DNA of 63,436 nt, counting the filler, from Candidatus Desantisbacteria bacterium CG1_02_49_89 (GTDB lineage: Bacteria > Desantisbacteria > UBA1551): assembly GCA_001871075.1 (NCBI GenBank). It is 5 parts of 5 records of this genome, joined end to end, with 100 filler letters (N's around TTAATTAATTAA, not from the genome) between each part and the next. Parts side by side here need not be neighbours in the genome. Positions count along the whole stretch, not along the records: positions 1 to 7,702 come from MNUP01000121.1; 4 more parts are not named here. The stretch is one strand, 5' to 3'. Both the position numbers and the translations under genes were made by a program. Within the stretch, counting starts at the first letter, position 1. Each line of letters starts with the position of its first letter. Positions 2,531 to 49,423 of this stretch are shown piece after piece. Under the pieces are notes generated by a model. That model had not been told where the DNA came from. It worked only from the letters and a program-made list of their open reading frames with translations, and did no database searches.

Positions 2531-2579
2531 AGTAGACCCTTTAGGGTCGTTTAAATAACGGGGCTAAAGCCCCTACTCC
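2531..2579. repeat. REP-like doublet (GTAG-hairpin ... hairpin-CTAC)
   Basis: AGTAGACCCTTTAGGGTCGTTTAAATAACGGGGCTAAAGCCCCTACTCC; near-identical copy at 43767-43812. Confidence 0.8.
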
Positions 2580-2587: not shown

Positions 2588-2639
2588 GCAAACCTTCCTC
2601 CATCAAGATCGGCGGATCTACGAAAAGGTTTGTCCTATC
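2588..2639. repeat. REP-like hairpin carrying a 28-nt insert (2596-2623)
   Basis: GCAAACCT[28 nt]AAAGGTTTG versus empty GCAAACCTAAAGGTTTG at 46758-46774. Confidence 0.75.
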
Positions 2640-7650: not shown

Positions 7651-7702
7651 GTCTTTTTCCTTTCCCTTTATATCGTTCTCTTTTCCCTATTCTTCTTCCC
7701 CC

Positions 7703-18830: not shown

Positions 18831-18930
18831 NNNNNNNNNNNNNNNNNNNNNNNNNNNNNNNNNNNNNNNNNNNNTTAATTAATTAANNNNNNNNNNNNNN
18901 NNNNNNNNNNNNNNNNNNNNNNNNNNNNNN
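18831..18930. other. Artificial contig linker
   Basis: N-run with TTAATTAATTAA. Confidence 0.98.
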
Positions 18931-19783: not shown

Positions 19784-19821
19784 GATTTATCTCCTTCTGT
19801 ATAAAAGCTTGGGTGCCTGGT

Positions 19822-20516
19822 CTTGGCCCGCCCGTAAGACGGGCGAAACCTTCGCGGCTACATTAGGTGCGTTCGGGGAACGGACCCTGCAAATACACGC
19901 AACCTCCCTCCTTAAAGATTGGCGGGTCTTCGAAAAGGTTGCGGCTACCTCAGGGGCAAGCAAGCTTGCCCCTACGCGAAAAGCAACCATATTCGGGCGT
20001 GATCCTCCAAACTGACTGGCGGACAGGGGAATTGAACCCCTACAAAGCTTATAGGATACCACTTTTGCCCAAAAGTGGTGTCCTTTATAATACCACTTTA
20101 GGTGACACTTTTATTAACTGTATGACCGCTCAAAGACCGCTATAAGAATCCCTCTGTGTCTCCCTTTATAAAAGGGAGAGCGGGCGTGATGAATCACGCC
20201 CCTACAAACGCAAACCTCCCTCCTTAAATTGGCCTGGAAGGGGAAATAATGGGGACGGGTTCATTTATTTCAACGCAACCTCCCTCCTTAAAGATTGGCG
20301 GGTCTTCGAAAAGGTTGCGGCTACCTCAGGGGCAAGCAAGCTTGCCCCTACGCGACACATAAATAGCAGAGCCCTCCATAAAAATTGGCGGATTTTCAAC
20401 AAGCTCTGCCGCTACAGAAATACGCAAGCCTAAAGGCTTGCCCTACGAAAAATAGGATATAATGTGCGACGAAACGTCGCACCGCTACAAAACGCAGGCT
20501 GAAGCCTGCGGCTATC
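19822..20516 (-). repeat. Array of about 12 co-oriented heterogeneous GTAG-hairpin (REP-like) units, including an exact 83-nt direct repeat
   Basis: Units end in CTAC/CTGC/CTAT on the plus strand; 19897-19979 is identical to 20273-20355. Confidence 0.85.
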
Positions 20517-20532
20517 ATCCCCTCACCTTAAT

Positions 20533-23487
20533 TTATTTAACCAGAAGGAGCTTCCAGGCGAAAGCCCTGAGGTTAATTGTGAATTCCTGCCCGGCCAGGG
20601 GAATTGCATCGCCTGTCAGCGCGTTTGAAACCTCAAAACCTTTTTTCAATTTCAGTTTAAGGGGATCCAGTTTTATAACTGCATCCATGGTGCTGTCGGT
20701 CAGGTTCGAGACAACGATCAAAGCTCCCTTTTCATTCCTGCTGTATATGCTCGCCTTGACCCCTTCGGGGCAGGTTATATAACCTTCGTTTTTCCAGTAT
20801 GGAAGCCACGCGCAGTCTTTCTCGCCCACGCCGAAATTTTCCTGGGCTTTCCAGACCTTGGTCACCACAGAGGTCGGGGACGGGCGGCAGGCAATGTCGT
20901 GGAGCAGGGTTATCGAAAGCGCTGCTTCAAGGCTCCATTTCCCGCCTGGATAGACCAGGAACTGTGTCGGGATCCCCCAGTTCGTTCCCATAAACTCAGC
21001 CCTGAAAGCGCCCAGGGGGAAGACCTCAAGGATCTCACTCTTGGTTTTGCACTGCGCGAGCCTTGCCTGCATCCATTCGCCGTCCCACAAAGAAGTAGCG
21101 AAGGATATCGTTGGAGCTATGACGCAGGTTGAGTTGTGCGCGTCCACGAACCCGCCGTTCTTCGTGCAGACGGCGTTCAGCCTTTTCATTATGCTGCGCA
21201 CCGCGAATATCGGGTAGGTGGTTTTGACCTTTCCGTCCTTTACGTACCCGCACCCGTGCGCGGCGTTCGCGCAATCCCATGGCTCAACTGTGCCGTCAAG
21301 ATAAACGCCGTCTATGTGGTATTTGTCGATTATGTCCTGCACTCCCTGGACTATGAAATCCTGCCAGATGCTGTTATAGCAAACGATGTAATCTACCTGG
21401 GTGGGCTTGCGCGTGTACCCGCCCTTTTTCCCGCCTCCCGCGTCCTTGCACAGGACTTCATCCCTGCAAAGGTTCCATTCCGGGGCGATGTTGGATAATT
21501 CATACCCGAAATAGACCAGGAGCTTCATTCCGAGGCGGTGACATTCGGAAACAAGGCTTTTCAGCTCTTCGGCGTGCATTTCACCGGGATAATTCTGGAT
21601 ATCCGTCCAGTGCTCGTGGAAAACTATGGTATTCACCCCGTCCTTTTTAAGCTTCGCGAGCTGTGACAGCGGGGCGGTATTGTTAGGTGTCGCGGCAGGC
21701 GGCTTTTCGATGCCGTAATTGGCGCCGTGCGCGATGCGCCAGTAGCGCCATCCTTCAGGATATTTCTTTACCGGAGTTCCCTGGAACCCGAAAGTATAGG
21801 TCAGGGGCGAATCCGCCTGCAGCGGGGTGGAAATAATGGAGATGCGCATTGTAACCATATCCTCGCCCATCTCAGCTCTTATCACGCTGTTCTCGTTCCT
21901 GTTATTCCATCCCTTGTCGGATTCCGCGAACCAGCCGAAACCGAGGTCCTCGTTCCCCAGCCAGAAGAACGGGGCGAACTGCATCGCCATGTTGTTCTTT
22001 AATTCCCCGGTATTCTTGGGCTGGCCGTTAAACGCGGGCCAGTAATTGAAAAGCGCGGCGAATTCTTTTTTGATAGGGACCAAAAGAGCAAGCTTGTCAA
22101 TGGATAGTTTTTCTTTCGGGCTCAAAGTAAGGTCTATCCTTATCATTCCGTCGTATTCTATGAGAACGTCAGCTGAAACGTCCAGAGCGCCGTATTTGCC
22201 TGACGCTTTCATTATTACCTTTGAAGGGCTTTTTGTTACCACGGCCAGGCTCTGGCCTGAAAGCGCGACCGGCTTTTTGTCTATGACAGTTTCCAGAGTT
22301 ATGGGTCCGGAGAGTATAGAGCTGCCCTGATTAATAACAGCAGAAGGCAGGAACGAGCCTGAGAAATCATATGTTCTGCCCCAGCATTTGACTTTCTGGC
22401 CGTCAATTTCCATCGGGGTCCAGGGAGCAAACACTTCATCGGTTATTCCGGCTTTTGAACCGATCCAGGGATAAACGGCAATACCGAGTTTGCTGCTTGC
22501 CTCGGTAAGAACCTTGTCTTTTTTATCAATAAGCGATGCCTTTATTTCGTATTCGCCTGCCGGAAGGTCCGCTATACCGAGTTCTGTTTCAACCCTGTAT
22601 TTCGCGTCAAACTCCTTTATCTGCCCGGTCTTCAAGATCTTCCCTTCAGGAGAAACGAGCTCCACTTTCGCTTTCAGGTCCGTAGGCTTTAAAGAGCCAA
22701 ACTCCTTTTTTGACGCTCCGAGCTTCACAACCGCGGTCTTTTTGACAAGGGGATACGGCACGACCTCCATGCTCAGGCCCGGGTACTGGATGGGCGCGAC
22801 CTTTATCTCTTTCCCTTCTTTCTTTGCGGACACCGCGTAAGCGTAGATCTTCACTTCGTCAAGGTCGCCGTTGAAATCATCCCCCCAGCTCCTGCCTATC
22901 TTTATAGGGCTGTTGTTATTAAGGTCACCTTTCGTGCTGTCCGAAGCCTCGCCTGCCTGGATGCCGTCCACATACAAATACAGTTTCCTGTTATCGCCGT
23001 CCCTCACGCCCAGGATGTGGTGCCATTTTCCGTCAGTAAGGTTCGCTGACACTATCCCTGCCATCGAGGAGCCGTCCCAGTTCCTGAAATGGATCTCTCC
23101 CCCGGCAAGCTGGTCAAAGGTAAAAGGATACGTGTTGCCTACTTTCCCGAGGAAGTGCGCGTCCGGCGCGGGCCTCTTCGAACTTTTAAACCAGAACTCG
23201 ATGGAATAGTCGTCGTTCTCACCGCCGATGTCAATGCTGTCGGAATGCGGGACCTCAACGTAATCGTTCTCTCCTCTGAAAGAAAGCGCGGAATTGCTGA
23301 CCCCGGTTATCCATCTGGCATCATGTATTGTCCCGTCATTTCCTTTACCGGAAATATCTTTTACGGTATCCCCGCTGCCCTCGTCAAAATTCCACCAGCC
23401 CCACAGTTCCTTTCCCGCCGCGCGAACCTGGCAACAGGAAGCAACGCAAAAACCGAGAACAAATAACAGCAAAACAGAGTTTTTCAT
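20533..23487 (-). CDS. Secreted LamG plus DUF6067-type putative glycoside hydrolase
   Basis: Signal peptide, GWWNFDE LamG, IEYDGMI, GFGWFAESD, IDGVYLDG, LWDGE motifs. Confidence 0.7.
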   Translation of the reverse strand: MKNSVLLLFVLGFCVASCCQVRAAGKELWGWWNFDEGSGDTVKDISGKGNDGTIHDARWITGVSNSALSFRGENDYVEVPHSDSIDIGGENDDYSIEFWFKSSKRPAPDAHFLGKVGNTYPFTFDQLAGGEIHFRNWDGSSMAGIVSANLTDGKWHHILGVRDGDNRKLYLYVDGIQAGEASDSTKGDLNNNSPIKIGRSWGDDFNGDLDEVKIYAYAVSAKKEGKEIKVAPIQYPGLSMEVVPYPLVKKTAVVKLGASKKEFGSLKPTDLKAKVELVSPEGKILKTGQIKEFDAKYRVETELGIADLPAGEYEIKASLIDKKDKVLTEASSKLGIAVYPWIGSKAGITDEVFAPWTPMEIDGQKVKCWGRTYDFSGSFLPSAVINQGSSILSGPITLETVIDKKPVALSGQSLAVVTKSPSKVIMKASGKYGALDVSADVLIEYDGMIRIDLTLSPKEKLSIDKLALLVPIKKEFAALFNYWPAFNGQPKNTGELKNNMAMQFAPFFWLGNEDLGFGWFAESDKGWNNRNENSVIRAEMGEDMVTMRISIISTPLQADSPLTYTFGFQGTPVKKYPEGWRYWRIAHGANYGIEKPPAATPNNTAPLSQLAKLKKDGVNTIVFHEHWTDIQNYPGEMHAEELKSLVSECHRLGMKLLVYFGYELSNIAPEWNLCRDEVLCKDAGGGKKGGYTRKPTQVDYIVCYNSIWQDFIVQGVQDIIDKYHIDGVYLDGTVEPWDCANAAHGCGYVKDGKVKTTYPIFAVRSIMKRLNAVCTKNGGFVDAHNSTCVIAPTISFATSLWDGEWMQARLAQCKTKSEILEVFPLGAFRAEFMGTNWGIPTQFLVYPGGKWSLEAALSITLLHDIACRPSPTSVVTKVWKAQENFGVGEKDCAWLPYWKNEGYITCPEGVKASIYSRNEKGALIVVSNLTDSTMDAVIKLDPLKLKLKKGFEVSNALTGDAIPLAGQEFTINLRAFAWKLLLVK

Positions 23488-23509
23488 GTTTCTCCTTTTA
23501 TTTAATGAT

Positions 23510-23770
23510 GATTACGGTGATTTCAAAATTAACCACAGAGGCACGGAGGCACAGAGAAATACATTTTTGCCACTGTCCGCCCGTCTTTACAGCGGGCGAG
23601 ACCTCGCCCCGATGGCCATCGGGGCGGGAAGGTACTGAGATAGATTGCTTCGTTTTTACTCGCAATGACCTTTCAGTGAATTCAGTGAACTCAGTGGCTA
23701 ATTTCAGATTTTACTATGACTCTTTGACTCGGCGCCTGCCCGCCCTTGTCCGCCAATTTTTAAGGAGGAA
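23510..23770. repeat. Composite intergenic repeat cluster
   Basis: GATTACGGT, CACRGAGG and TCAGTGAA arrays; double-hairpin insert 23576-23628; GATTGCTTC..CGCAATGAC half-element; TCCGCCAATTTTTAAGGAGGA module. Confidence 0.75.
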
Positions 23771-23773
23771 ATC

Positions 23774-25183
23774 TTACTGGGCGGGACTCTCTGACTCTTT
23801 ATTTAAGCGGGCGGGCTTGATGGTCCAGGACTGCAGCTTCGCCCACCTTATGATATTCTTTCCCTCAAAGCCCTGCACGAACAGCCACTGGTCCTTGTAT
23901 TTCAGGTTTTCAAAGTCCCCTGATTTAACCGCCTGGGGATAGTTATCCGCGCTTTCGATCTTAACAGTCTTCGCCGCGGGTTTCAGCATTGCTGCCGCCA
24001 TCGACCTTATGAAGCTGCCCGGGCCTACGCGCGCGCTGCCGATCTTTATTTCAGACGGCACGCGCTTGAATCCCTTTACGTACTGATTTACTTCAGCGCA
24101 TTTCCTGAGGAACTCGGTTTTTTTAAGTTCTATCTTTCCTTTGAAATCCGGGAAATCCGAAACAGGCCCTGCTGTTTTTTGCAAAGGGATGCAGGCAGGC
24201 AGGGAACGTTTTTTAAGCAGAATCTCAAGCGCGGATGAAAAAAGGGAAAAGATCTCGGCAGGGGAAAAATATCCTTTGCCCGGTTTCGTATAACCCAACT
24301 CTTTCACCGTGCTCTCGGCAAGGGACCTCAGTTCCTTCAACGCGACCTTTTCTTTCGCGGGAAGTTTATACTGCCTGTAAAGCTCCCCGTACGTGATCAC
24401 TTCCACGCCCGGCTTCGCGAGCACCCAGTCAGTAAAATCCGTTATACCTTTTTTCAGGCTTTCAAACGCCGCCTGCGGGCGCAGGGCCGCGGGTTTCCAC
24501 GCCCACGGAGCGGTATTCCTTCCGTTGAAATTCACGCCGTCCCAGAATTCCGCCGCCACGAGCTTGCAGGGATGGGTTCCCAGGACTATCAAACCGTCAG
24601 GAAGGTTCTTTTCTTTTTCATAAATGCGCTCAAAGCCGGCCTTCATTTTTTCAAAATCGCCTGTTTCAAAGTAATCATCGAACCCAAGGTTCCAGAGGAT
24701 CCCTTCAAGCGCGGAGCAGTACCAAAGCGGCTTCAGTTTTGACAGAGAAGAAAGGAAAGTCCAGGTCATAACCGGGATCCCCATCTGGCACATCGCGTAA
24801 AGGACCTGGGGGGCGAACGAACCGCCGGGCTGCATGTACGAAGACGGGTGCTGGCCGAATATGTCCTCAACATCTTTTATCCCTTCCGCTTCCTTCCTTA
24901 TAACCTCGTTTATCCCGTCGTCCCAGTCCATCGTGTCAAGGTATTCCGGGAACGTGGGATGCACGGAATGGACGTTGGAATGGTAGTCTGCCTCGTTCCC
25001 GCTCACAAGATTAATGATGTCCCCGCGCTTCCTTGCCTTAAGTGCCCTGGCGTATTCGGCGACAACATTGAAGCATCCCCTGATCTTTCTTTCGGCAAAG
25101 AGCTTCGCCCAGAACTCCACGGCATCGTCGTGCTGCGGGGTGATGTAGTCTTCGGTATCCAGGGAAAAAATTACGCGCACCAT
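23774..25183 (-). CDS. Polysaccharide deacetylase-like (NodB-fold) protein
   Basis: FSLDTED, YHSNVHSVHP, LGTHP motifs; ATG at 25183 with GGAG SD. Confidence 0.6.
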   Translation of the reverse strand: MVRVIFSLDTEDYITPQHDDAVEFWAKLFAERKIRGCFNVVAEYARALKARKRGDIINLVSGNEADYHSNVHSVHPTFPEYLDTMDWDDGINEVIRKEAEGIKDVEDIFGQHPSSYMQPGGSFAPQVLYAMCQMGIPVMTWTFLSSLSKLKPLWYCSALEGILWNLGFDDYFETGDFEKMKAGFERIYEKEKNLPDGLIVLGTHPCKLVAAEFWDGVNFNGRNTAPWAWKPAALRPQAAFESLKKGITDFTDWVLAKPGVEVITYGELYRQYKLPAKEKVALKELRSLAESTVKELGYTKPGKGYFSPAEIFSLFSSALEILLKKRSLPACIPLQKTAGPVSDFPDFKGKIELKKTEFLRKCAEVNQYVKGFKRVPSEIKIGSARVGPGSFIRSMAAAMLKPAAKTVKIESADNYPQAVKSGDFENLKYKDQWLFVQGFEGKNIIRWAKLQSWTIKPARLNKESESPAQ

Positions 25184-25202
25184 AAAAACTCCATTCAAAA
25201 TA

Positions 25203-25330
25203 AGTTTACAGAGTTTACACAGGTTACAGAGGTTACAGAGTAAAAGCCGGATACAATAGTTTACAGAGTTTACAGAGTTTTAAAACTTATGACTTTGTAA
25301 ACTTTATAAACTATGTAAACTATGTAAACT
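25203..25330. repeat. 9-mer AGTTTACAR tandem arrays in inverted arrangement
   Basis: AGTTTACAG repeats facing TGTAAACT repeats; the same unit occurs at about 40573, 44008 and 54598. Confidence 0.85.
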
Positions 25331-25333
25331 GTT

Positions 25334-26671
25334 TTACAGGATTTTAACTGTCCTGAACTGCGGGAGGTAATCCTCGTTCTTATAAAGCAGCTCCTGCGTC
25401 ATCTTCTTGATCTCGCGCAATGAAAGGACCGCGGCTGAAAGCGGGTCATAGCAGATCGCCCTGTAAACAAGGGTCGGGTCCCCGGTCAGCGCCGCCTCCA
25501 CAGCCATCTCCTCCACGGCTATGCTCACATTGTTCAGCGCCGCGCACTGGGGCGGAAGCGGGCCGACGTAAGCCGCGTTGAACCCCTTCCTGTTCGCGAC
25601 AACAGGCACTTCAACGCACGCGTCCTGCGGGAGATTCGGTATTAATCCCTTATTGGGCACGTTGCCGTTGAATTCGTACATCTCTCCTCCCATATAGGAA
25701 TTGACTATCGCGGACGCGTATTCAGCTCCCCTGTCAAGAGAGAACGGAGCTCCTTCCCTGAACCATTTCCTGACGTCTTCCTTCCAGTGTTTGTCGGCGT
25801 GCAGGTAATGCTTGACTATGTAGGCGTATTCCCCGGCGTTCCAGCCAGAGCCCTTGATCGGCGTGCAGTATTTCTTTATCAGGTCCGGGCGCTTCCTGAA
25901 CCACCAGTTATATTCGGAATTGTGGCCGCTGGATTCGGTGACGTAGTAACCCAGGGCAAGGAACATTTCGTTGCGCACAAGCTCCTCGTTGTAGATCTTC
26001 TTATTCGTGAGCACGGCCTTCCGCAGCTTCGGGTAAACATCCTTGTGGTCGCACTCATACTTGATGAACCACGACTGGTGGTTGATGCCCGCGCACACGT
26101 AGGTGACCTTGTCCATCGGGACCTTTGCCCAGCTGGCTATCTGCCACGCTGTTCCCTGAACGCTGTGGCAGAGCCCGGAGAGCTTTATAAAAGATCTTCT
26201 CTGCATCGCCCTGCACAGCATTGCCATAGGATTGGTATAGTTAAGGAAGATCGCGTTGGGGCACAGCTCTTCCATATCCTTGCAGATGCTGACCATCACG
26301 GGGATCGTGCGCAGCGCCCTGAAAACACCCGATATGCTGCGGGTATCCCCGATATTGGTGTCAACACCGTATTTCTTGGGGATCTCGATGTCATGCCTCC
26401 ACACCTGCACAGGCGCGGCAAGGATCGTGCACATAACCGCGTCAGCGCCTTTCAGCGCTTCCCTCCTGTTCAGGGTCGCTATCACCTTTGCCGGGTACTT
26501 GCCCCTGTCAACGATGATCTGCACCGCTTTCCTGGCGAACTCAAGCCGCTCCCTGTTAACGTCCATGAGCACAAGCGTTGAATCCTTCAGCAATGGATAC
26601 GTAAGAACGTCCCTTACCAGCCCCCTCGTAAAACCCAGACTGCCCGCACCGATGAAAACGATCCTCGCCAT
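25334..26671 (-). CDS. melA: GH4 NAD-dependent alpha-galactosidase
   Basis: [33 protein letters not shown] motifs. Confidence 0.9.
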
Positions 26672-26686
26672 TTGGCCTCCGATTCA

Positions 26687-26785
26687 GTGTCAACGTGTCA
26701 ACGTGTCAACGTGTCAAAGTTAAAGCTTTAAATCGAAATCCTTGCAGTTGCTCTGACACGCTGATACGCTAATACTCTGACACGC
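26687..26785. repeat. 8-mer GTGTCAAC arrays in inverted arrangement
   Basis: Four GTGTCAA units at 26687-26717; TGACACG-type units at 26754-26785. Confidence 0.85.
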
Positions 26786-26788
26786 ATT

Positions 26789-27571
26789 TTAAACACATCC
26801 CCAGCAATCCAAAAACTGCTGACGGCTCTGTTTTATCGACTCGACCCATTCGGATCCCGCGTTCTGCGTGCAGCCCATCTCGAAAGTCGCGACTCCGTCA
26901 AACTTGCGCCGCCTCAAAGCCGCAACAGCTGCCGTCAGGTCCAGGTTCCCTTTACCCAGCAGCTGGTGCTGGTCATTTTCCCCGTCGTTGTCGTGCACGT
27001 GCAGTTCAAATATTTCAAGCGGCATGGAATATATGAAGTCCTCAACGGACATCTCCCCTCTCAGCCATTTCAGGTTCATGTGCCCCAGGTCCAGGAGCAT
27101 CCCGAAACCATTGCCGCCGACATGGTCGGCAAGCGCCTTGAAATCCTCACGCGTTGTAAGGCAGGTCCCGTTCTCGACTGCCGCCTTTATGCCCAGCGGC
27201 GCTATTTCCCCGACAAGGTCCAGGATAACGCGCTTCATCACGCCGGTGTTCAGTTTTTTTTGGCCGCCTTCAACCGAATGGTACTGGTCTATTGAGAAAC
27301 AAAGGACCTTGCCAGTGTTTTCGTGGAACGCCTTCACCGTTTTTATGTAACCGCCGATCTTTTCCGTAATGACTTCGCTTGCTTCGTTTGCAGTGTGGAA
27401 AGTGACGTTCAAACCGGTCTCTATGACCGCTTTGACAGCGCCTTCCTCCTCTTCCCTGTCCGAGAAGAAAGGATGCAGGCTTACAGCTTCAAAACCCGCC
27501 TCTTTGACCACCTTTATCTTTTCAGGCAAAGGCAGGTTCCCGATACCCCACTCTATGAATGATGTTATCAT
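26789..27571 (-). CDS. Sugar phosphate isomerase/epimerase (AP endonuclease 2 TIM barrel)
   Basis: VEN, LDLGH, LHVHDNDG..DQH...G.G, FE motifs. Confidence 0.85.
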   Translation of the reverse strand: MITSFIEWGIGNLPLPEKIKVVKEAGFEAVSLHPFFSDREEEEGAVKAVIETGLNVTFHTANEASEVITEKIGGYIKTVKAFHENTGKVLCFSIDQYHSVEGGQKKLNTGVMKRVILDLVGEIAPLGIKAAVENGTCLTTREDFKALADHVGGNGFGMLLDLGHMNLKWLRGEMSVEDFIYSMPLEIFELHVHDNDGENDQHQLLGKGNLDLTAAVAALRRRKFDGVATFEMGCTQNAGSEWVESIKQSRQQFLDCWGCV

Positions 27572-27580
27572 ATTTTATTT

Positions 27581-27644
27581 ATTATACTATGTTATATGAA
27601 AAAGTCAAGCGTTCATTGACAATTATTGTAATTTCTGATATAAT
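27581..27644. promoter_or_regulatory. Back-to-back divergent sigma70 promoters
   Basis: Plus strand TTGACA(27616)-17-TATAAT(27639); minus strand TTGACT(27608)-16-TATAAT(27586). Confidence 0.8.
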
Positions 27645-27654
27645 AAGGTTTGAT

Positions 27655-28098
27655 ATGAGAAACGAAAGGGGATTTACCCTTATTGAGGTGGTAATATCGG
27701 CGGTCATTTTTCTGATCGCCATAGCGGGCGTCCTCTACCTTTTTCCAAGGGGTATGCGGTCCATAGCAAGAACAAAGGAGCAGACCCAGGCCGTAAACCT
27801 GGGCCAGGAAAAGATCGAGGAGATAAGAGGCGTTGCCTATTCAAGCATCACAGCAGGCATCCCCTCCTCGGCTCCGCCCTATAAAAACAGCGCTCTTTCT
27901 GACACCGCGGCCGGATGGGACCTTGCGGTAAGCCGCACCGTGACCGTGCAGGCGGTTGACGACGCCAGGGACGGCACAGGCGGGGCTGACTCCGACGGCG
28001 ATATGGATGATTATAAAAAAATTTCCGTGACCCTGAAATGGGCGTCAAAAGGTGAAACGCATGAGATCCAGCTGTCCACCATTCTTACAAAAAGATAA
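27655..28098 (+). CDS. Type IV prepilin-like protein (PilV-like)
   Basis: RG|FTLIEVV class III signal peptide; KKISVTLKW C-terminus. Confidence 0.88.
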   Translation: MRNERGFTLIEVVISAVIFLIAIAGVLYLFPRGMRSIARTKEQTQAVNLGQEKIEEIRGVAYSSITAGIPSSAPPYKNSALSDTAAGWDLAVSRTVTVQAVDDARDGTGGADSDGDMDDYKKISVTLKWASKGETHEIQLSTILTKR

Positions 28099-28612
28099 CC
28101 GGGCCGCGGGGGGTTTTACTCTCGCGGAGCTCCTGATCGCCTCTTCTGTTTCGGTCGCAATGATCGGCATCGCGCTGCTCATCCTGATCAGCAGCCTGGG
28201 CTCATATGTGCAGGGTTCAAGGCGGGCGGGGGTGGAACAGAACTCAATGCTGCAGTCCGAAAGGCTCGCGCGGGAGATCCGGCAGGCGAAGAAAATAACC
28301 CGGATAACAGAGACCGGGACATATCCGCTTTACTTAAAAATAAAATTCCTTGCCTTGAACGATAAAGAAGTTTCATACCTGTATGACGCCGAAAGCAAAA
28401 ATCTTGCCCGCAAAGAAACCGGGGTGCCGGACAGGATGATAGCGCGCATATTCCAGACGCATGACGACGTGGCCTTTGCGGGCTTTGACCGGGACGGCAA
28501 TACCACAACTGTCCCGGCTGATGTAAAGTCAATAAGGATAAGCCTGAAGGTAACAGACGATAAGAACGAAAATACTTCCGCGGTAAGGACAATGATTTCT
28601 CTGAGGAATTAA
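28052..28612 (+). CDS. Type IV prepilin-like protein (PilW-like; start uncertain)
   Basis: GG|FTLAELL motif; LAREIRQA; C-terminal ISLRN. Confidence 0.85.
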   Translation: MKRMRSSCPPFLQKDNRAAGGFTLAELLIASSVSVAMIGIALLILISSLGSYVQGSRRAGVEQNSMLQSERLAREIRQAKKITRITETGTYPLYLKIKFLALNDKEVSYLYDAESKNLARKETGVPDRMIARIFQTHDDVAFAGFDRDGNTTTVPADVKSIRISLKVTDDKNENTSAVRTMISLRN

Positions 28613-28615
28613 AAA

Positions 28616-29578
28616 ATGCTTAACCAGAAGGGGTTTGTTTTTGAGGTGACGATATTCGTGGTGGCCGCGGTATGCCTATTCAGCGCCGTTTTTATGGGCC
28701 TCGTGGTTTTCAATACGAGAACAAGCAGGCGTATATCCTATTCGGCCATAGCGTTCTACGCCGCTGACGGCGGAATGGAGAGGGCGGTATATTACCTGAG
28801 GCAGGACCCAGACGCGGACTGGTCAAACGACGGGGCAGATCCCCTGTTCAATGAATCCGGTTACAGGGTAAGAACCTACGGCGCGTCTAAGAATTCCGTG
28901 AAGGTTGAGTCGCTGGGAACGTTCCAGGGCGTGCAGAGGAAAATTTATTCCGAGATCACGAACTTTGACGCCGTATTCACCAGTACCCTGTTCTCCGGCT
29001 CGTACATAGGCATCGAGGGGAATGCCGACGTGGAGGGAAACGCGGTGGCATCCGACACTATATACATCAGCGGTTCCGCGTCCGTTGAAACACCCCAGGC
29101 GCATACTAACGTGCCCTTGCCGGAACTGACTGACCCCGGCTATTACATAAACAAGGCGGTCGCGAACAAGATGAACGGGAATTCAGGCGCGGGCGGAAAT
29201 TATTTCCAGGGCGGTTCGCCGGTGTTTTCCTCGCTGAACGGCGTGATATTCATTGATAAGAATCCAGACGGCTCCCCTGCGAACATTAACATATCGGCAA
29301 ACATATCAACCGATGTTGCCTGGGCGGATTCCACATTTTTAATTATTTACGGAAATTTAATAATCAGCGGCAACGTGAATTTCAGGGGGCTGCTGTACGT
29401 GACCGGCGACCTGCAGATTGTGGGGAACGTGGAAACGAGAGGACCCCTTATTGCGGGGTCCATTTCAAAAGTGAGCGGCTCAACTGATTTGCATTGCTGG
29501 TCAAACCCAGCCTATGAAGACCCGCACGGGTTCCAATCCGGAGTAATGGCAATCAAATGGATGGAGCTTGCGCCCTGA
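28616..29578 (+). CDS. PilX-like minor pilin
   Basis: QKG|F hydrophobic helix without Glu5; AFYAADGG; VESLG. Confidence 0.8.
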   Translation: MLNQKGFVFEVTIFVVAAVCLFSAVFMGLVVFNTRTSRRISYSAIAFYAADGGMERAVYYLRQDPDADWSNDGADPLFNESGYRVRTYGASKNSVKVESLGTFQGVQRKIYSEITNFDAVFTSTLFSGSYIGIEGNADVEGNAVASDTIYISGSASVETPQAHTNVPLPELTDPGYYINKAVANKMNGNSGAGGNYFQGGSPVFSSLNGVIFIDKNPDGSPANINISANISTDVAWADSTFLIIYGNLIISGNVNFRGLLYVTGDLQIVGNVETRGPLIAGSISKVSGSTDLHCWSNPAYEDPHGFQSGVMAIKWMELAP

Positions 29579-29592
29579 ATAGCTGAAAGGTG

Positions 29593-29647
29593 CCCGCCCC
29601 GATGTTGCGATGGGGCGAGGTCTCGCCCAGATTGAAATCTGGGCGGA
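29593..29647. repeat. Double-hairpin CGCCC module
   Basis: GGGCGAGGTCTCGCCC core between two hairpins, located between convergent genes. Confidence 0.75.
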
Positions 29648-29686
29648 AAAGTTAAATCAACTATCAATTGTGCCAAAATGAAACAC

Positions 29687-30748
29687 CTACCTTATTAATT
29701 TCAATATCTCTAATCCTTCTTCTTCGCTCGGGCAATTTGTTGAAATAAACAAACCATCTGAAGAAAGTTCCTTTAAAATATCTTTTATGTGGCTGCCTGG
29801 AAATCCAAGCAGCCATAATTTTTTTCCGGCTGATTGTATCTTGTGATAAAGCGGAAACCACTTTTCAGATTCAAGGCCTGGATGGCCTGCGCCGGGTGTC
29901 CACTGTATCCCATCCAGCCTGTCAATCGCCAAAAGTGAATCCAGGTGCTGGATCGCTTCTTCCCCGTCCAGATGATAAAAGGAATGGTCAAGCCATTCGC
30001 ACTGTTTTATAAAATAAGGAAGCGCGAACTCATCAAACATATCCCTTGATATCATTGCTGACATATCACATTGAAGCTTGCACATTTTACCCGGTGCCCA
30101 TGTCTGAAAGAAGACAGAGCAGGACCCCCGGTTCTTTCCATCAACGGCCTTATAGAGTCCGTCGTAAGACTTAAACCATAGGTCTAATATTTTCTTCTGG
30201 CATTGAAGGACCTGTTTGGGCAAATCCTTAAGGTCCAGTAAAAGCTGTTCTGAACCGCGCAAAGACGCGATCGTGTCAAGGTTCTCGATAAAATCAGGAA
30301 GCGAAACCATGAATTCCCCTTTGCTAGCCTCTGTTGCCTTCCTGGCAATATCAAGAGCAAACTTCCACCACTTGTTATTCTGGTCCAACTTTATCCTGGC
30401 AAGGTCTTTCCAATCTTTAATGCACGGGCTATACCATACTGTGTCCTCTGCAAAAACCGGCTCACAGCCGATATGGGTTGCGAAGCTTCCTGGCCCAAGG
30501 TGGGTGTCAATACCCGGGAAAGCATCTTGAAGGAATTTGCAGCTATTTAGGTAGTTTATCCCCTGAGCAATACGATAATCTATATTGGTCCATTTCTCTT
30601 CTAAGCTTTTAACTGCCGGTATGGTGATTTTGGGCATAGGTTCTTTCCTCGGAGCATAAACCTGGAATATCATCCCTTCTGATCCCCTGCCCTTCCACCA
30701 CTTTGTCCATCTTCCTTTTGCTGTTTCCCAGTCTTCTTTGTACTTCAT
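29687..30748 (-). CDS. URO-D/MtaA-like TIM-barrel protein
   Basis: ASLRG, LQCDMSAMIS..MFDEF, YHLDG, IQWTPGAG motifs. Confidence 0.75.
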   Translation of the reverse strand: MKYKEDWETAKGRWTKWWKGRGSEGMIFQVYAPRKEPMPKITIPAVKSLEEKWTNIDYRIAQGINYLNSCKFLQDAFPGIDTHLGPGSFATHIGCEPVFAEDTVWYSPCIKDWKDLARIKLDQNNKWWKFALDIARKATEASKGEFMVSLPDFIENLDTIASLRGSEQLLLDLKDLPKQVLQCQKKILDLWFKSYDGLYKAVDGKNRGSCSVFFQTWAPGKMCKLQCDMSAMISRDMFDEFALPYFIKQCEWLDHSFYHLDGEEAIQHLDSLLAIDRLDGIQWTPGAGHPGLESEKWFPLYHKIQSAGKKLWLLGFPGSHIKDILKELSSDGLFISTNCPSEEEGLEILKLIR

Positions 30749-30759
30749 GTTCTCTCCAA

Positions 30760-30775
30760 TGTTTCACGTGAAACA
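30760..30775. promoter_or_regulatory. parS: parS chromosome partition site
   Basis: Perfect palindrome TGTTTCACGTGAAACA matching the ParB/Spo0J consensus. Confidence 0.88.
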
Positions 30776-30925
30776 TAGATTTTGCTTAATTTTATTTAAA
30801 ATACTATAATTTGGGATAGAGTTACTACTCTTTGAATAGAAGAAGTTTAAAAGATGGGAATAAATATACTATTATTGCTAAAAATTGATATTAAATTGGT
30901 TTTATATAAACATGCTGTTAAAATA

Positions 30926-31711
30926 CTATCCCTGACTGCTTTTTATGCTGTCAATCCACTTTTTAGTCCACTCAACAGCATCAAGCCTTAGATCGCAGAT
31001 GCAGCTCGCAAGAAAAATAATTCCTTCTATCTCCCCTGTTTTAAGAAGATCCAGGCCGAACCTGCATTGTTTTTCCATCAGCTCGACCTGCATCGGTTTG
31101 CTGTTCCCGAAATCATACATGTAGCAACCCAGTACCTTACGGCTCCCCGGGCACATTTTTTTCAGTTTCGCAAAATTCATTTCAAGACGCGCGAGATCTT
31201 CCGAATGCCAGGTCCACAGCGTTGTCACGTCGCACTCGTCAAGATACGGTTTTACCGCCAAATCCAGCTCGTGGGTGTAAAGAGTTACCCATAAATCCAA
31301 TTTGTGCCCTGCGTCTGTCCTGTTGGACAGGCTTCTGCGTATATTCGCAATGTCCTGAGGTTTATACGCATTCATCCGGAAGGAGAAAAAATCATCCATT
31401 ATTACGCCGCGTATGTTGGGGAATTTTTTTGATAGCTCAAGTAAGACAGGCACTTCGCTCTCGTTTGAACTTGCTGAATCGCCGATTATTGACCAGACCA
31501 CTCTGTTTAACTTTTTAAAAGACGCGGCATACTTGCTGTATTCGGGAACTTCCGGCTTGTTGTTAAGCCTGACAAAGAGGATGTTGGAGACGCCCATGTA
31601 AGAAGCCGCTTCCGCAGGCGATATTTTTGATCCTTCCTTAAACCCGTACTGGTTATTCACTCCGCCCGCAACATGCGTCCACAACCATAATTTATCCAAT
31701 ATGTTCAACAT
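30926..31711 (-). CDS. Conserved hypothetical protein, likely TIM barrel
   Basis: Clean ORF with GAGGTGG SD before ATG 31711; GVIMDDFF motif. Confidence 0.7.
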   Translation of the reverse strand: MLNILDKLWLWTHVAGGVNNQYGFKEGSKISPAEAASYMGVSNILFVRLNNKPEVPEYSKYAASFKKLNRVVWSIIGDSASSNESEVPVLLELSKKFPNIRGVIMDDFFSFRMNAYKPQDIANIRRSLSNRTDAGHKLDLWVTLYTHELDLAVKPYLDECDVTTLWTWHSEDLARLEMNFAKLKKMCPGSRKVLGCYMYDFGNSKPMQVELMEKQCRFGLDLLKTGEIEGIIFLASCICDLRLDAVEWTKKWIDSIKSSQG

Positions 31712-31842
31712 AACCACCTCTGTAACCACGAATTTCCACGGATTCTCACGAATTTTTCACAGGGAACCCTTCACCAAGATCGGCGGGCAAGCTTACGAGA
31801 ACTTAAAATTTTTGGTTTAAACAAATGACAAATGACTATTGA

Positions 31843-33531
31843 CTAATGACTGCTTATAAAGGGCTTTAAACGCAGGTTCAGCGCCTTTGATTTCCCGTCG
31901 GAAATTGATAAGACAGACCCTGTTCCGCAGCTGTTCCAGTCCGCGATTAGTTTCCCGCCTTTTTTCGCACCGGAAATTTTAACCGCGGCTTTTCCTCCGT
32001 CGGCTTCAAGGTTCACAAGAACGATCTTTCCGAAGTTATAAACGCCGGGCTTCAGGCTGCCCAGCGTTATTATCTTCCTGCTCCGGACGATACCGAGCTT
32101 CAGGACCTTCGGGGCGCAGGTAAAGCGCAGGGTTGCGGCAATGTTCTTCTTAAGCGGTTTTGCGGAAACTAGTATTTCCTTATCCTTGAAAATCCATTCG
32201 GCTTCGACATTTTTATCCTTCCAGATAAAGACGCGCTCATTCTTTTTAAACAGTTTACCGGGGGAAACGGTTTTGGTGCCGGGCACGGCAAAGATCGAAA
32301 AATGCATGGGTTTGTTTTCATCAATATCAACAACGGGATTATCATCCTTTCTGTCCAACCTGAACCTGCTGCTGTCAAGCAAATAGGGGATTATCCACCT
32401 GGCGAATTTCTCCTCTGCTTTCTTGCTCCAGTACGGGTCTTTCTTTTTAATGTCGTAAACGCGAAGGTCTGTAAGCCTCGGATATGCTGCGCTGCCTTTA
32501 TCATGGCGCAGGCGTGCCCTGTAATAAGGAGTGCATGCAACTACGCAACTGCTATTCTTTAAAGAGCTTCTCCAGCCCCCGGGCTGGTACAGGATCTGAG
32601 CAGGGGAGGGGGCGGAAAAATTTCGAAGATAATTTTTTGAAAACTCGCTTGCTGTCACGCTTTCCGCCCTTCCTTCTTTATGCAGTTTTGCCAGGCAGGC
32701 GATCTGCTCTTCGTACGCCGCGGCAAGCATTTTCCAGTCCCACCCGTTCTCCGCTACAAAAGAAGCAAGCCCGACTGGTTTTTCGCCAAGCGCGTGGTCT
32801 GTCAGTTTGTTTATGTAGTCTATTATCACGCTGCCCTTCAGGCTGCGCTGCTGTATCATTGCCACTTCTGTGGACCATATCCCTTTTTCATTACCGTAGT
32901 TTGAAGTAAGGTCTTCGGTAATCACCGGGTAAATAACTTCTTTGCCCTGCCCCTGCTTTGACTGCGCGGGCTGCCAGATATATCTGCGTGAAGGCCGGAA
33001 GGGAAGGTTTGGCCACCCGCCCCACAGCGTGTATCCGTCAATGCCGAACTGGTTCCTGCAAAGCCCTATCGCGCGCACCTTGTATTTTTCCGCCAGGTAC
33101 TGAGCGGAAAAACTGTCGATCATCCACATAGACACGGTTTTCGGGTAAAACCTGAAGAGGGAGCGGTAACGCTTCATTATTACGTCGATCAGCAGCTTTC
33201 TTTCCTTTTGGCTATAACCCATTGTCAGGCAATATTTTGCCCAGAACCATTCTTCTCCCTGCCTGATCTTAAAAGGAATGCCTGCCTCCCTGCAATGGGA
33301 AGAGGTGATCTCCAGCCATACCCCGAGTTCCTGGTCTTTATCCAATCCTTTGCACAGCTCGATATATTCCGGGTCGCAAAGCGCGTCGTACCTGGGCAGC
33401 CAGGTCCCCGCGATGCCGTGTTTTTCAAGCAGGCGCTTCATTCCCCAGGCCATCTCCCTGTTGTTCCACGCCGGAGGCGTATCATCGCCGCGCAGGGGCA
33501 AGTTGTAGATAATATACTTATCTGTTTTCAT
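31843..33531 (-). CDS. Hypothetical protein with a glycoside hydrolase/deacetylase-type N-terminal barrel
   Basis: TWL..YDAL, ELGVWLEI, YPKTV..W.ID, DGYTLWGG motifs. Confidence 0.55.
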   Translation of the reverse strand: MKTDKYIIYNLPLRGDDTPPAWNNREMAWGMKRLLEKHGIAGTWLPRYDALCDPEYIELCKGLDKDQELGVWLEITSSHCREAGIPFKIRQGEEWFWAKYCLTMGYSQKERKLLIDVIMKRYRSLFRFYPKTVSMWMIDSFSAQYLAEKYKVRAIGLCRNQFGIDGYTLWGGWPNLPFRPSRRYIWQPAQSKQGQGKEVIYPVITEDLTSNYGNEKGIWSTEVAMIQQRSLKGSVIIDYINKLTDHALGEKPVGLASFVAENGWDWKMLAAAYEEQIACLAKLHKEGRAESVTASEFSKNYLRNFSAPSPAQILYQPGGWRSSLKNSSCVVACTPYYRARLRHDKGSAAYPRLTDLRVYDIKKKDPYWSKKAEEKFARWIIPYLLDSSRFRLDRKDDNPVVDIDENKPMHFSIFAVPGTKTVSPGKLFKKNERVFIWKDKNVEAEWIFKDKEILVSAKPLKKNIAATLRFTCAPKVLKLGIVRSRKIITLGSLKPGVYNFGKIVLVNLEADGGKAAVKISGAKKGGKLIADWNSCGTGSVLSISDGKSKALNLRLKPFISSH

Positions 33532-33544
33532 ATGTCTTCAGCTC

Positions 33545-33717
33545 AATTATGAATTATGAGTTATGAATTATGAATCAAAAGCATGGATTTTTATTGTAAC
33601 TCAGGGCTTTAGCCCTGATATCAAACCTGAAGGTTTGAGTTACACATCGTTCTCAGTGCCTTCAGTGGCTAAAGCTTGTTTCGTGCTTTCGTGATACTTT
33701 CGTGCTTTCGTGGAAAT
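33545..33717. repeat. 7-mer TTATGAR array, GTAA REP doublet and TTTCGTG 9-mer array
   Basis: The same 7-mer/linker/REP module occurs at 48424-48497. Confidence 0.8.
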
Positions 33718-33730
33718 TGTTGTTTTGGTA

Positions 33731-36393: not shown

Positions 36394-36466
36394 ACGTAGC
36401 CCGCCACGATTATTGGCGGGCGAAGATCCCTGCGTTACAGCTCCAGCTTCATCGGAGCTGCAGGGG
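36394..36466. mobile_element. 73-nt variant of the 67-nt mini-element
   Basis: Scaffold CGTAG..CGAAGATCCCTGCGTTA..CTGCAGGGG with different hairpins, inside a 9-mer array. Confidence 0.65.
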
Positions 36467-39354: not shown

Positions 39355-39368
39355 TTTAGTCTCCTTGT

Positions 39369-39511
39369 TAGAGTCACAGAGTCAAAGAGTCACAGAGTCA
39401 AAGTAGATACTGTGTTTATCCGTGGAAATCATTTACTTTTGCATTTTACACTTTGCATTTTGCATTTTGACTTGTATTTCCCCTTACACGTTACACGTTA
39501 CACCTTACACG
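39369..39511. repeat. Adjacent tandem arrays (AGAGTCAM, TTTGCAT, TTACACG)
   Basis: About four units of each motif read directly from the sequence. Confidence 0.85.
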
Positions 39512-39515
39512 AGTT

Positions 39516-41473: not shown

Positions 41474-41741
41474 TGTTCCTTTTATTTGATTACGGTGATT
41501 TCTAAAAGATGATTACACCGATTACAAAAAAACTATATCGATAAACGACGAATTCCGGTGATTATTTTAAGAACGATTACAGTGTTACAAACTTTTACCA
41601 CGCGATTTCACAGATTTCTATAGATTTTTACATTCAGCATCCAGCACCTTCGGGCATTCGGCAGATTTTACTCATGACAAATGACTGTTTTATATAATCA
41701 AGTCTATTATATTACTTATTCTATGTTTGTCAAGAATTGAC

Positions 41742-41791
41742 TTGACTTTTCCCGCGATTTGAGTATAATAATAGTATAATCAAAGTTATAC
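41742..41791 (+). promoter_or_regulatory. TA operon promoter with palindromic operator
   Basis: TTGACT-16-TATAAT; GTATAA-N6-TTATAC at 41774-41791. Confidence 0.65.
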
Positions 41792-41802
41792 CGGAGGAAG
41801 AA

Positions 41803-42042
41803 ATGGGAACTATAAGGCTTACGGTGACAATACCGGAAAAAGAATACAAAAAAATAGAGGATGAAAAAAGAAAAAAGGGAATTAACAGGAGCGCTCTCGT
41901 GCAGGAGATGATAGGCGTATATTTCAAAAACGAGGAAGAGCGGCAGAATGTCGCCCGCTATATAGAGGGTTACCGCAGGAAACCGGAGAAAGCATCGCCC
42001 GCGCTTGATAAGGCCCAGGCTGAGACCCTGGGGGAGTTTTAA
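41803..42042 (+). CDS. Ribbon-helix-helix antitoxin
   Basis: IRLTVTIP...INRSALVQ RHH pattern; YIEGYRRKP; directly upstream of the toxin. Confidence 0.82.
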   Translation: MGTIRLTVTIPEKEYKKIEDEKRKKGINRSALVQEMIGVYFKNEEERQNVARYIEGYRRKPEKASPALDKAQAETLGEF

Positions 42043-42043
42043 A

Positions 42044-42358
42044 ATGCGCAGAGGAGAGATCTGGTGGGCAAAACTTCCTGAACCCGCGGGAAAACGCCCT
42101 GTCCTGCTTCTTTCAAGGAACGAGGCTTACGCCGTGCGAAACTCAGTTACAGCGGCTGAGGTTACAAGCAGGATCAGGGGCATACCCGTGGAAGTCCAGC
42201 TCGGACTTGCTGACGGAATGCCAAAAGAATGCGTGGTCAATCTTGACACAATAATCACGATAACCAAATCGCTTATTGAAACAAGGATAACCGCCCTGGA
42301 CAACGAAAAGATGAAAGAAGTGGAGAAGGCGATAAAATTCGCCCTTGCGATAACATAA
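42044..42358 (+). CDS. mazF: PemK/MazF family endoribonuclease toxin
   Basis: MRRGEIWW...KRPVLLLS...VTS...VNLD.I.TI. Confidence 0.92.
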   Translation: MRRGEIWWAKLPEPAGKRPVLLLSRNEAYAVRNSVTAAEVTSRIRGIPVEVQLGLADGMPKECVVNLDTIITITKSLIETRITALDNEKMKEVEKAIKFALAIT

Positions 42359-42369
42359 AAGGAGCCTGA

Positions 42370-45955: not shown

Positions 45956-45970
45956 TTATCCTCCTTTAAT

Positions 45971-46333
45971 GCGTGTCAGCGTGTCAACGTATCAGCGTGT
46001 CAGAGCAACAGCAAGGAATTTATTTTAAAACCTTATTAACAATATATCTTCGTGTTTTCGTGGAGATCATGTTTTTTTTAAGTTCTCTTAAGTTCCCTGT
46101 GAAAAAATTTTAAGGTGGTCTCCCGCCTCATCGGCGGGTCGCCGCAGGGGCGAACATTGTCCATAGCATACAAAGAGACGCGCTCATTAGTTCAATTGTT
46201 TCCCTGCAGGCCCTTATGGCCTAACGCAGGGATTTCACTCCCAGTTCAACAATTGCTCAATAGCTGAAGGAATTTAAATTTAAAATTCCTTGTTTTTGCG
46301 TTGATACGTTGACACGTTGATACGTTGACACGC
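45971..46333. repeat. Inverted pair of 8-mer/GCAAGGAATTT modules enclosing further hairpins
   Basis: 45971-46030 and reverse complement 46281-46333; internal TCCCTGC..GCAGGGA hairpin at 46201-46232. Confidence 0.75.
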
Positions 46334-46334
46334 T

Positions 46335-46652: not shown

Positions 46653-46691
46653 TTATCGCCTCCTATGATGATATACAATCTTTTAGATTAT

Positions 46692-46781
46692 CGTAGGGCA
46701 AAGCTTTAGCCTTGCGAAAATGAATCCCGATTTTTCCTTTGATAAATATTAAATACCGCAAACCTAAAGGTTTGCCCTACG
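46692..46781. repeat. Inverted REP doublet between the sigma and anti-sigma genes
   Basis: CGTAGGGCAAAGCTTTAGCCTTGCG ... CGCAAACCTAAAGGTTTGCCCTACG. Confidence 0.85.
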
Positions 46782-46796
46782 AACACATAAAAAAGT

Positions 46797-48403: not shown

Positions 48404-48562
48404 CTTTTTTCCTTCGGAAAAACAATTATGAGTTATGAATTATAATTTATGAGTTAAAAAGCAAGGAGTTTATTGTAACTCAGGGCTTCAGCCCTGATTA
48501 ATAACTTTGCTTCGCAACATTCCTTTTTAGCAGGATCATTTACTTGATAAATTTGGGTGATT

Positions 48563-48856
48563 TTAGATGACAATTTCAGAAGATTTTAATTCTATTTCTT
48601 TTGTTATCAATTTATAATATAATACTATAAAAAAGACCTGGATAAATGGAGTTCCCGCAGAACTTACTATAATATTATAAATTTGACTTATATTTTTCCA
48701 GGTTTCCTTTGGGACAAAGAAATAAGGGAAATATCCAACAATAAAATATAGTAAATATATCTCTATTGCAGTTATTTTAGTTTTTACGCCTTTGGCTAAT
48801 TCCGCACTTCTCTTTAATGCTAATTTACTCGTATTATTTTCTATGACAAAAACCGC
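48563..48856 (-). CDS. 3' fragment of a membrane protein (not in the ORF track)
   Basis: Open frame AVFVIENN..ALKRSAEL..two hydrophobic segments..VLYYKL..* running from the contig edge. Confidence 0.6.
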   Translation of the reverse strand, partial: AVFVIENNTSKLALKRSAELAKGVKTKITAIEIYLLYFIVGYFPYFFVPKETWKNISQIYNIIVSSAGTPFIQVFFIVLYYKLITKEIELKSSEIVI

Positions 48857-48857
48857 C

Positions 48858-49409: not shown

Positions 49410-49423
49410 ATGTCATACCCGGA

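Follow-up and report, generated by a model that had tools for sequence, protein, structure and literature searches.

A constant 28-nt hairpin module at a fixed point in the apices of different REP hairpins of Candidatus Desantisbacteria

Introduction

A constant 28-nt module, itself a small hairpin with a tail, is found at one fixed point in the apices of several different REP hairpins of Candidatus Desantisbacteria bacterium CG1_02_49_89. The DNA analysed is a stretch of 63,436 nt from this genome and is called the window throughout. The unit is discrete, its position in the REP apex is fixed, and it is present with and without REP hosts. Judged from its sequence, the hairpin appears to be a unit in its own right, which in two lineages is also found inside REP apices. 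The explanation that we place first, and that we hold with about even confidence, is that a separate hairpin unit was nested in REP apices by single-strand transfer and was then propagated with its host REP.

The module and its copies in the window

The 28-nt module is comprised of a 6-bp imperfect hairpin (Y-CCTCC / GGCGG-R) with a 9-nt A-rich loop, followed by a 7-nt tail. The stem has an invariant T.C mismatch at its fourth position. The tail is lineage-specific and has the variants TCTTCGA, TCTACGA and TTTTCAA. When either strand is folded, the outer REP stem stacks directly on the inner module stem, flush on the 5' side, while on the 3' side the module tail and two host bases form a 9-nt bulge.

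The four 28-mers quoted in the original prediction were all found where it had placed them, and they align without gaps. The first copy (2596..2623, + strand) is divergent, with six differences from the 19906 copy, and sits at the apex of a REP host at 2588-2632. It is flanked by the arms GCAAACCT and AGGTTTG, and the 3' CTAC tail of this host is degenerate. The second copy (19906..19933, + strand) sits at the apex of the REP host 19898-19948, whose arms CGCAACCT and AGGTTGCG are followed by GCTAC. The third (20282..20309, + strand; host 20274-20324) is a duplicate of the second. The fourth (20372..20399, + strand; five differences) is at the apex of the REP host 20366-20415, in which GCAGAGC / GCTCTGC is followed by CGCTAC. 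A mechanical hairpin scan recovered outer stems of 8, 8 and 7 bp around 19906, 20282 and 20372, in each case followed by CTAC; the outer stem of the 20372 host is offset by one register. The module copies at 19906 and 20282 are contained in an exact 83-bp direct repeat (19897-19979 / 20273-20355), so these two count as one event and the four copies represent three different stems. All four copies do lie inside outer stems, but the claim that each occupies a different one is to be corrected to this extent. A truncated module (CCCTCCTTAAA-TTGGC; 20218..20233, + strand), read directly from the sequence, stands behind a GCAAACCT arm at 20210-20217 and is a decayed filled REP.

The genome-wide scan for CCTCC-N8-YGGCGG suggested earlier was approximated with the window and 23 metagenome contig stretches. 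The pattern has six matches in the window (2597+, 19907+, 20004+, 20283+, 20373+ and 23750-). Across 100 dinucleotide-preserving shuffles of the window the mean was 0.05, and none (0/100) reached six. Five of the six window copies are antisense to both neighbouring genes.

Three looser relatives of the module had been predicted at 20004, 23746 and 31767, and all three exist, with two corrections: the second is on the minus strand (hairpin 23769-23749), and the third reads CCCTTC and not CCCTCC. The hairpin at 20003..20023 (+ strand) is of the widespread core type (TCCTCC-N9-GGCGGA, tail CAGGG) and lies beside, and outside, a small hairpin followed by CTAC. A weak Rfam hit to a tRNA/tmRNA 3' end at 20004 (E 0.0017) was rejected; the T-arm look-alike is the neighbouring hairpin with its CTAC. 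The hairpin at 23749..23769 (- strand; tail CAAGG) is also of the widespread type and lies 5 nt past the stop codon of an ORF at 23774-25198. It has a gapped enclosure formed by CCCGCCC (23785-23779) and GGGCGGG (23745-23739), and its sequencing bin is about ten times deeper, which indicates a high-copy repeat. The hairpin at 31767..31787 (+ strand) is a degenerate core (CCCTTC-N9-GGCGGG, tail CAAGC) without an outer stem and is part of a high-copy repeat of about 90 nt. Up to eight contigs of one run have T>C at position 31771, and other metagenome copies carry C. Two of these three relatives, 20004 and 31767, lie outside hairpin loops.

Perfect hairpins of the form CCCGCC(A)-loop-(T)GGCGGG are found at 60081-60108 and 36396-36420, and one of them is followed by CTAC. 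They have a module-like stem without the mismatch and may be related REPs.

Host REPs with and without the module

The host REPs of the window form clusters of 7-9-bp hairpins in intergenic regions at 2441-2733, 19784-20532, 33532-33730, 46653-46796 and 48404-49663. Like other REPs, they are short multi-copy intergenic palindromes that occur singly, in tandem clusters and as inverted doublets. They also have the GTAG that characterizes REPs, seen as CTAC 0-2 nt after the stem on the + strand. A second class of REPs in the window has GTAAC ends.

Empty REPs are present alongside the filled ones. The two empty hosts that had been proposed were both recovered by the hairpin scan: one at 20424..20446 (+ strand; GCAAGCC-TAAA-GGCTTGC followed by CCTAC) and one at 46758..46780 (+ strand; GCAAACC-TAAA-GGTTTGC followed by CCTAC), the latter being the exact empty form of the 2596 host. 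A third, at 2556..2578 (+ strand), reads ACGGGGCT-AA-AGCCCC followed by TAC and is the exact empty form of a filled REP on contigs L175 and L177. An empty-empty doublet of the GTAAC type is at 33596..33643 (+ strand; coordinates computed from a match at 33619). Both of its hairpin types are found filled elsewhere: CAAACCT, the right arm here, carries the module in doublets arranged in the same way on L169, L174 and L180, and CAGGGCT, the left arm here, carries it on L164 and L181, where the arms are swapped and CAGGGCT is on the right. A further empty REP is at about 48.48 kb.

The wider sample consists of the 63-kb window and 23 metagenome contig stretches of about 1 kb each, obtained by a scan for a 27-nt pattern and hence selected by pattern. 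Three of these stretches (L173, L178, L179) carry sequence identical to the window, and the others are further loci. L180 and L179 are parts of a single contig, and GTAAC-type REPs are also found in the window; both REP classes are therefore present in this genome. The module is found in both the GTAG-type and the GTAAC-type class, in 14 distinct host contexts and 13 distinct hosts. The outer stems include CAAACCT/AGGTTTG, CAGGGCT/AGCCCTG, CAGGACT/AGTCCTG, GGGGCT/AGCCCC, CGCAACCT/AGGTTGCG and GCAGAGC/GCTCTGC. One-mismatch outer stems are seen in L166b and L170 and a compensated form in L184; L170 and L184 indicate that filled REPs also diversify after filling.

The copies were aligned after 20282 had been dropped as a duplicate, which left 14. 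Mean pairwise identity is 0.91 in the module and 0.54 in the outer stem (six variable columns per arm), and module identity rises to 0.95 when two divergent window copies are left out. The nested structure is paired in 94% of cells, and 6 of 8 outer pairs have changed on both sides. Its covariation score was matched by 0 of 500 shuffles, and pairing falls to about 55% when the partners are slid by one column. Of the 14 copies, 11 have a flush outer stem of 6 bp or longer, compared with 7% for shuffled 3' flanks. With a generous criterion of at least 5 bp, all 14/14 copies have one, compared with 21% for shuffled flanks, and one hit in this set is spurious, its true stem being offset. Read in this generous way, the expectation that copies are centred in hairpin loops holds for the 28-nt subfamily, but it does not extend to the wider family.

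The junction is CT^RA within an apex CT-RA-AG. CT precedes the module in 13/14 of the window-type copies, and the orientation of the module relative to the REP tail is constant in 14/14. Exact removal of the 28 nt yields an existing empty REP without any mismatch in 5/14 contexts and with at most one mismatch in 9/14, and no such counterpart was found in 5/14. Exact matches to empty REPs over 10+10 nt are TATCAGGGCT^AAAGCCCTGA, ACTCAAACCT^GAAGGTTTGA, TATCAAACCT^GAAGGTTTGA and TAACGGGGCT^AAAGCCCCTA, and the 2596 host matches the empty REP at 46758 exactly over 8+8 nt. The 28 nt are the sole difference between the filled and empty forms within the 10+10 nt compared. The module junctions have no duplicated bases and no flanking direct repeat that would favour precise deletion. 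In doublets on contigs the partner REP is empty and the linker is ATAT. These comparisons support the view that the 28 nt act as a single block, gained or lost at one invariant position in the REP apex.

Contigs of four DNA runs were aligned to 19790-32000. They contained no empty allele at a filled site, and in them the module forms a repeat node joined to other hosts. Contig L173 has a collapsed, single-copy form of the 83-bp repeat; it lacks the 293 bp of 19980-20272 and is 376 bp shorter overall. It has one module copy, flanked on the left as in the first 83-bp repeat and on the right as in the second. The difference between L173 and the window at 19980-20272 is a strain-level insertion/deletion within the REP cluster.

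The core hairpin in other genomes

Species genomes were scanned for a 19-nt core pattern. Most of the matches listed are due to chance or are coding, and a recurring non-coding core is seen among them in Firestonebacteria, Omnitrophota, Planctomycetia, Cytophagia, Acidobacteriota and Scalindua. Whole-genome core counts, each set against a control with the reversed pattern, are 28 vs 1 in genome G002, 8 vs 0 in G001, 8 vs 0 in G003, 6 vs 0 in G005 and 10 vs 5 in G004. In the Firestonebacteria group, to which G002 belongs, 3 of 61 genomes are rich in the core, with 28, 38 and 49 copies (controls 1, 0 and 0). A 21-mer of the 19906 copy is found letter for letter in G002 and G007.

The outermost pair of the core is C..G or T..A in 26/26 of the G002 copies listed, which argues for base pairing and not for two protein half-sites. 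Position 6 of the loop is a conserved G in core copies. Among exceptions at the flanking pair, seven are C..A wobbles vs two T..G, one of the latter from the unpublished genome G070; this asymmetry is too weak a signal to name the strand that folds.

In G002, 10/26 copies have a flush outer stem of 6 bp or longer, compared with 5% in the control. None of the 16 copies in G001, G003, G004 and G005 has one (0/16), and a conserved CAGGC follows the hairpin in these genomes. Since the core lies mostly outside hairpins in most of the other genomes examined, REP loops are one habitat of the unit and not its defining target. The presence of core hairpins outside REPs likewise indicates that REPs are not where the unit arose. 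The proposal of a REP parasite that is targeted by the hairpin loop therefore survives in part: an insertion-like unit at a fixed point, pairs of filled and empty hosts and recurrence in an unrelated lineage were all found, but loop targeting does not describe the core in other genomes.

The genes next to the copies are ordinary and include BirA-CoaX, PilB pairs, CysS, TilS and GGDEF proteins. There were no transposases among the genes flanking core copies in other genomes. In these genomes 23/44 copies follow a co-directional ORF of 80 aa or more at a distance of up to 150 nt, and 8/44 are beside a divergent start. On G002 contig C65 (L145), a gene for a 222-aa protein with a signal peptide lies between two inverted copies of the motif, one 43 nt before its start and the other 15 nt after its stop.

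Viral contigs gave one match to the core pattern, which is the chance level. For the window-type tail, 301 Kiritimatiellia genomes yielded one hit in all and 4 of the 61 genomes of the Firestonebacteria group yielded one each, all of them chance-like. Rfam gave no window hits at the gathering score; at relaxed thresholds there were only chance-level hits, with E up to 10 on 19784-20532 and E up to 1 on seven Firestonebacteria loci.

Several known kinds of site were considered and rejected. The spacing is wrong, by eye, for a sigma-54 promoter. An IHF site, a boxA-like UCUUU in the reverse loop, a ZTP riboswitch and an HDV-like ribozyme are without Rfam support. The start site of a small ORF was dropped because a start codon is absent at the right distance. 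Some Firestonebacteria copies suggested a promoter just upstream of the reverse-strand motif; the genome is AT-rich, and copies located 15-19 nt past stop codons contradict such a role.

A second REP family in Firestonebacteria

Firestonebacteria have a REP family of the form GTAGTTGC-YYGAT-loop-ATCRRGC. By our own count, empty and filled copies number 12 and 5 in G002, about 50 and 8 in G007, and 5 and 0 in G015. Filled copies read GAT-TC^(CCTCC-N9-GGCGG-GCAAAAGC)^ATC, so that the module in this REP is always preceded by GATTC. They have three stem variants, each of which is also found empty, and one filled copy in G007 has the module inverted. On these sequences, Firestonebacteria appear to be an independent replicate of the module in the apex of a different, GTAG-type REP family.

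An Rfam search placed two filled doublets about 100 nt downstream of c-di-GMP-I riboswitches, on the same strand. The loci L122 / L161 of G002 and L192 / L195 of G007 have the c-di-GMP-I aptamer first and then the REP doublet, and the gene downstream takes its start codon and first residues (MNQATT) from the right-hand REP of the doublet. On contig C9, a G007 paralog has the riboswitch and the gene, is missing the whole REP doublet and not the module alone, and has a different N-terminus. Paralogs of the riboswitch locus have the filled doublet in both G002 and G007; some copies may thus be old and not recently mobile. The intergenic DNA downstream of the L154 gene is unalignable between species.

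Y1/RAYT genes

Genomes G001, G002, G003, G005, G007, G015 and G069 (1.9-3.0 Mb) have four to nine Y1/RAYT-like genes each. RAYTs are described as usually single-copy (PMC5581495). Y1_Tnp genes are present in 48/61 genomes, independent of the presence of the motif, and by coordinates none adjoins a motif copy in G002, G007 or G015. In other motif-bearing genomes, the proteins most closely related to the G002 RAYT-like protein share only 29-38% identity with it. One RAYT-like protein of G002 is 196 aa long. The window ORFs scanned included no transposase or RAYT gene.

For the E. coli RAYT, REP binding is reported to require GTAG and a mismatch in the stem. The enzyme cuts single-stranded DNA close to the REP and carries out strand exchange, and its authors proposed that small single-stranded circles are excised and integrated to give BIME variants (PMC3333891).

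Other features of the window

Tandem repeats of 7-8-nt words (gtttacaN, tgacacgY, cacgaaag, ataactc, gactctgt) are found in nearly every intergenic region of the window, for example at 25199-25333, 26672-26788, 33532-33730, 39355-39515 and 45956-46334. Each region has a different word, and the repeats are often directly 5' of a ribosome-binding site. Similar word repeats flank the hairpin motif in genomes of Planctomycetia, Omnitrophota, Firestonebacteria and Cytophagia. Another family of structured repeats is comprised of two hairpins that have conserved bases and variable tips and are joined by GGGCGAGRYYTCGCC. Its sites are at 23594, 29613, 34967, 37496, 43853 and 54842, with a variant near 2650, and its pattern gave nine strand matches at six places vs 0 expected.

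A perfect 16-bp match to TGTTTCACGTGAAACA, which we take to be the parS consensus, is located at 30760-30775 in an intergenic region upstream of an ORF at 29687-30748. The 16-mer had no matches in shuffles, and the window may be near the origin region of the chromosome. A MazF/PemK-like toxin ORF (type II toxin-antitoxin) is at 42005-42358 within the gene-poor stretch 41474-42369. The gene content of the window is polysaccharide-degrading and PVC-like. Runs of N, masked or unassembled, are at about 7655-7698, at 18875-18886 and at about 48.5-48.6 kb.

Discussion

We give about equal weight to nesting by strand transfer and to its failure as an explanation of the filled REPs. A REP folded in single-stranded DNA would expose its apex, and a trans-acting HUH/Y1 (RAYT-like) enzyme would join the small hairpin unit into it. 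The composite would then be copied together with the host REP or REP doublet. Nesting by strand transfer is favoured by the strand exchange described for the E. coli enzyme (PMC3333891), together with the four to nine RAYT-like genes of motif-bearing genomes. Several findings count against it. The junctions CT^RA here and TC^AT in Firestonebacteria differ from the C^T cleavage of the E. coli RAYT. The module is a single 28-nt hairpin without two end hairpins or inverted-repeat ends. Its constant orientation in the window-type copies is also expected from common descent. Y1 genes are present regardless of the motif, none is linked to the module, and no polymorphic site was found.

A further step would be to regard the module as a tiny non-autonomous mobile element, a 21-nt hairpin with a short tail, that moves as single-stranded DNA into hairpin apices (REPs above all) and is shared horizontally among unrelated groundwater and sediment phyla together with a putative trans-acting enzyme. 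We consider this doubtful. Were it true, the module would be a hyperparasite of REP elements.

Two other explanations have to be weighed against nesting, and we regard both as improbable, the second slightly less so. One is descent: the filled REPs would be one subfamily with a long irregular apex that was always copied whole, the module would never have moved alone, and the variety of stems would have arisen later by mutation and compensation, or the empty forms through loss of the apex. The constant orientation and the uniform CT^RA junction are what descent predicts, and the mismatch intermediates L170 and L166b with the compensated L184 are stems evolving while filled. Whole doublets with a filled arm are present at several loci, and the stem variants of Firestonebacteria differ by transitions only, which are easy to reach via G.T intermediates. 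E. coli REPs are also described as combining an outer stem and an inner GC stem with an internal mismatch and a loop (PMC3333891). Against descent, two REP classes, each with its own tail, share the same 28 nt, as do stems separated by transversions on both arms, and 5 of the 14 contexts have exact empty counterparts. To account for this variety of stems and classes and for the empty counterparts, descent would have to invoke numerous compensated changes in parallel, or several deletions of precisely 28 nt in the absence of a flanking direct repeat. The core hairpins outside REPs, in other phyla and in this window, and the one inverted Firestonebacteria copy also speak against it.

The other explanation is selection by the host for a functional hairpin, displayed on hairpin tips, that is a site of protein binding or processing or an RNA element acting on transcript ends, stability or translation. 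It is compatible with nesting. The identity of the 21-nt core between the window and Firestonebacteria, the invariant mismatch, the conserved loop G and the consistent geometry with its flush 5' side and 3' bulge are in its favour. So are the location of copies between housekeeping genes with no transposases nearby, the excess of copies downstream of co-directional ORFs (23/44) over those at divergent starts (8/44), and the two copies that follow a c-di-GMP-I riboswitch on the same strand. However, gene orientation is not fixed, and the antisense position of five of the six window copies is opposite to the bias in Firestonebacteria. No Rfam family corresponds to the hairpin, and its patchy distribution, with only 3 of 61 genomes rich in copies, suits a selfish element better. 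Finally, the arrangement could be due to chance, or to misassembly of intergenic DNA that is rich in repeats. Repeats can be collapsed or made chimeric when short reads are assembled, and sequencing depth in the intergenic bins is 5 to 10 times that of genes. We consider this highly improbable, given the six matches observed against the shuffle mean and the presence of the same arrangement on 23 contig stretches from several assemblies and in independent species genomes.

Comparison with known elements

The mismatch in the module stem resembles the mismatch in E. coli REPs that is reported to be needed for RAYT binding (PMC3333891). The present elements differ from known REPs and REPINs in that the host stems vary widely, only the tail and the apex-closing CT..AG being constant, and in that the module has no GTAG of its own. 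Five IS families are reported to land specifically inside REPs (PMC1525189, PMC12288879). The REP-targeting IS (IS1397, ISKpn1, IS621, ISPpu9/10, ISPa11) are kilobase-sized and encode their own transposase, whereas the module is 28 nt long, non-coding and without terminal repeats or target duplication. It also differs from a MITE, since its ends are not mutual inverted repeats and the site CT^(28 nt)^RA has no target-site duplication.

Palindrome-associated elements derived from IS200/IS605 are recognized as single-strand hairpins, use a short fixed site without duplication and, like the module, have no inverted-repeat ends. They have a hairpin at each end and are several times longer, whereas the module has one hairpin only. 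BIME-1/RIP of E. coli and the Correia elements of Neisseria are palindromic repeats with a central IHF site, which is located in the sequence linking two REPs or inside the body of a MITE. They are like the present elements in that a constant extra motif is displayed at or near the centre of a fold. The module differs from BIME-1/RIP in its location, inside the apex of one REP and not in a linker, and by eye it does not fit what we take to be the IHF consensus. IHF binding to REP regions has been described (PMC1525189). The literature searched, a limited and non-exhaustive set, contained no description of a constant second hairpin, or of a non-coding unit of 28 nt, within a REP apex.

Significance

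The hairpin is a multi-copy motif not yet listed in the catalogue of bacterial intergenic elements. REPs are usually seen as end-points, that is, as small domesticated repeats served by one RAYT. A unit that repeatedly occupies the REP apex in two unrelated lineages and two REP classes would mean either that REPs are themselves targets of a smaller element or that they display a conserved hairpin. Either reading would provide a testable substrate, the 28 nt together with a 20-nt REP, for single-strand cleavage and joining by the many RAYT-like enzymes of uncultivated phyla.
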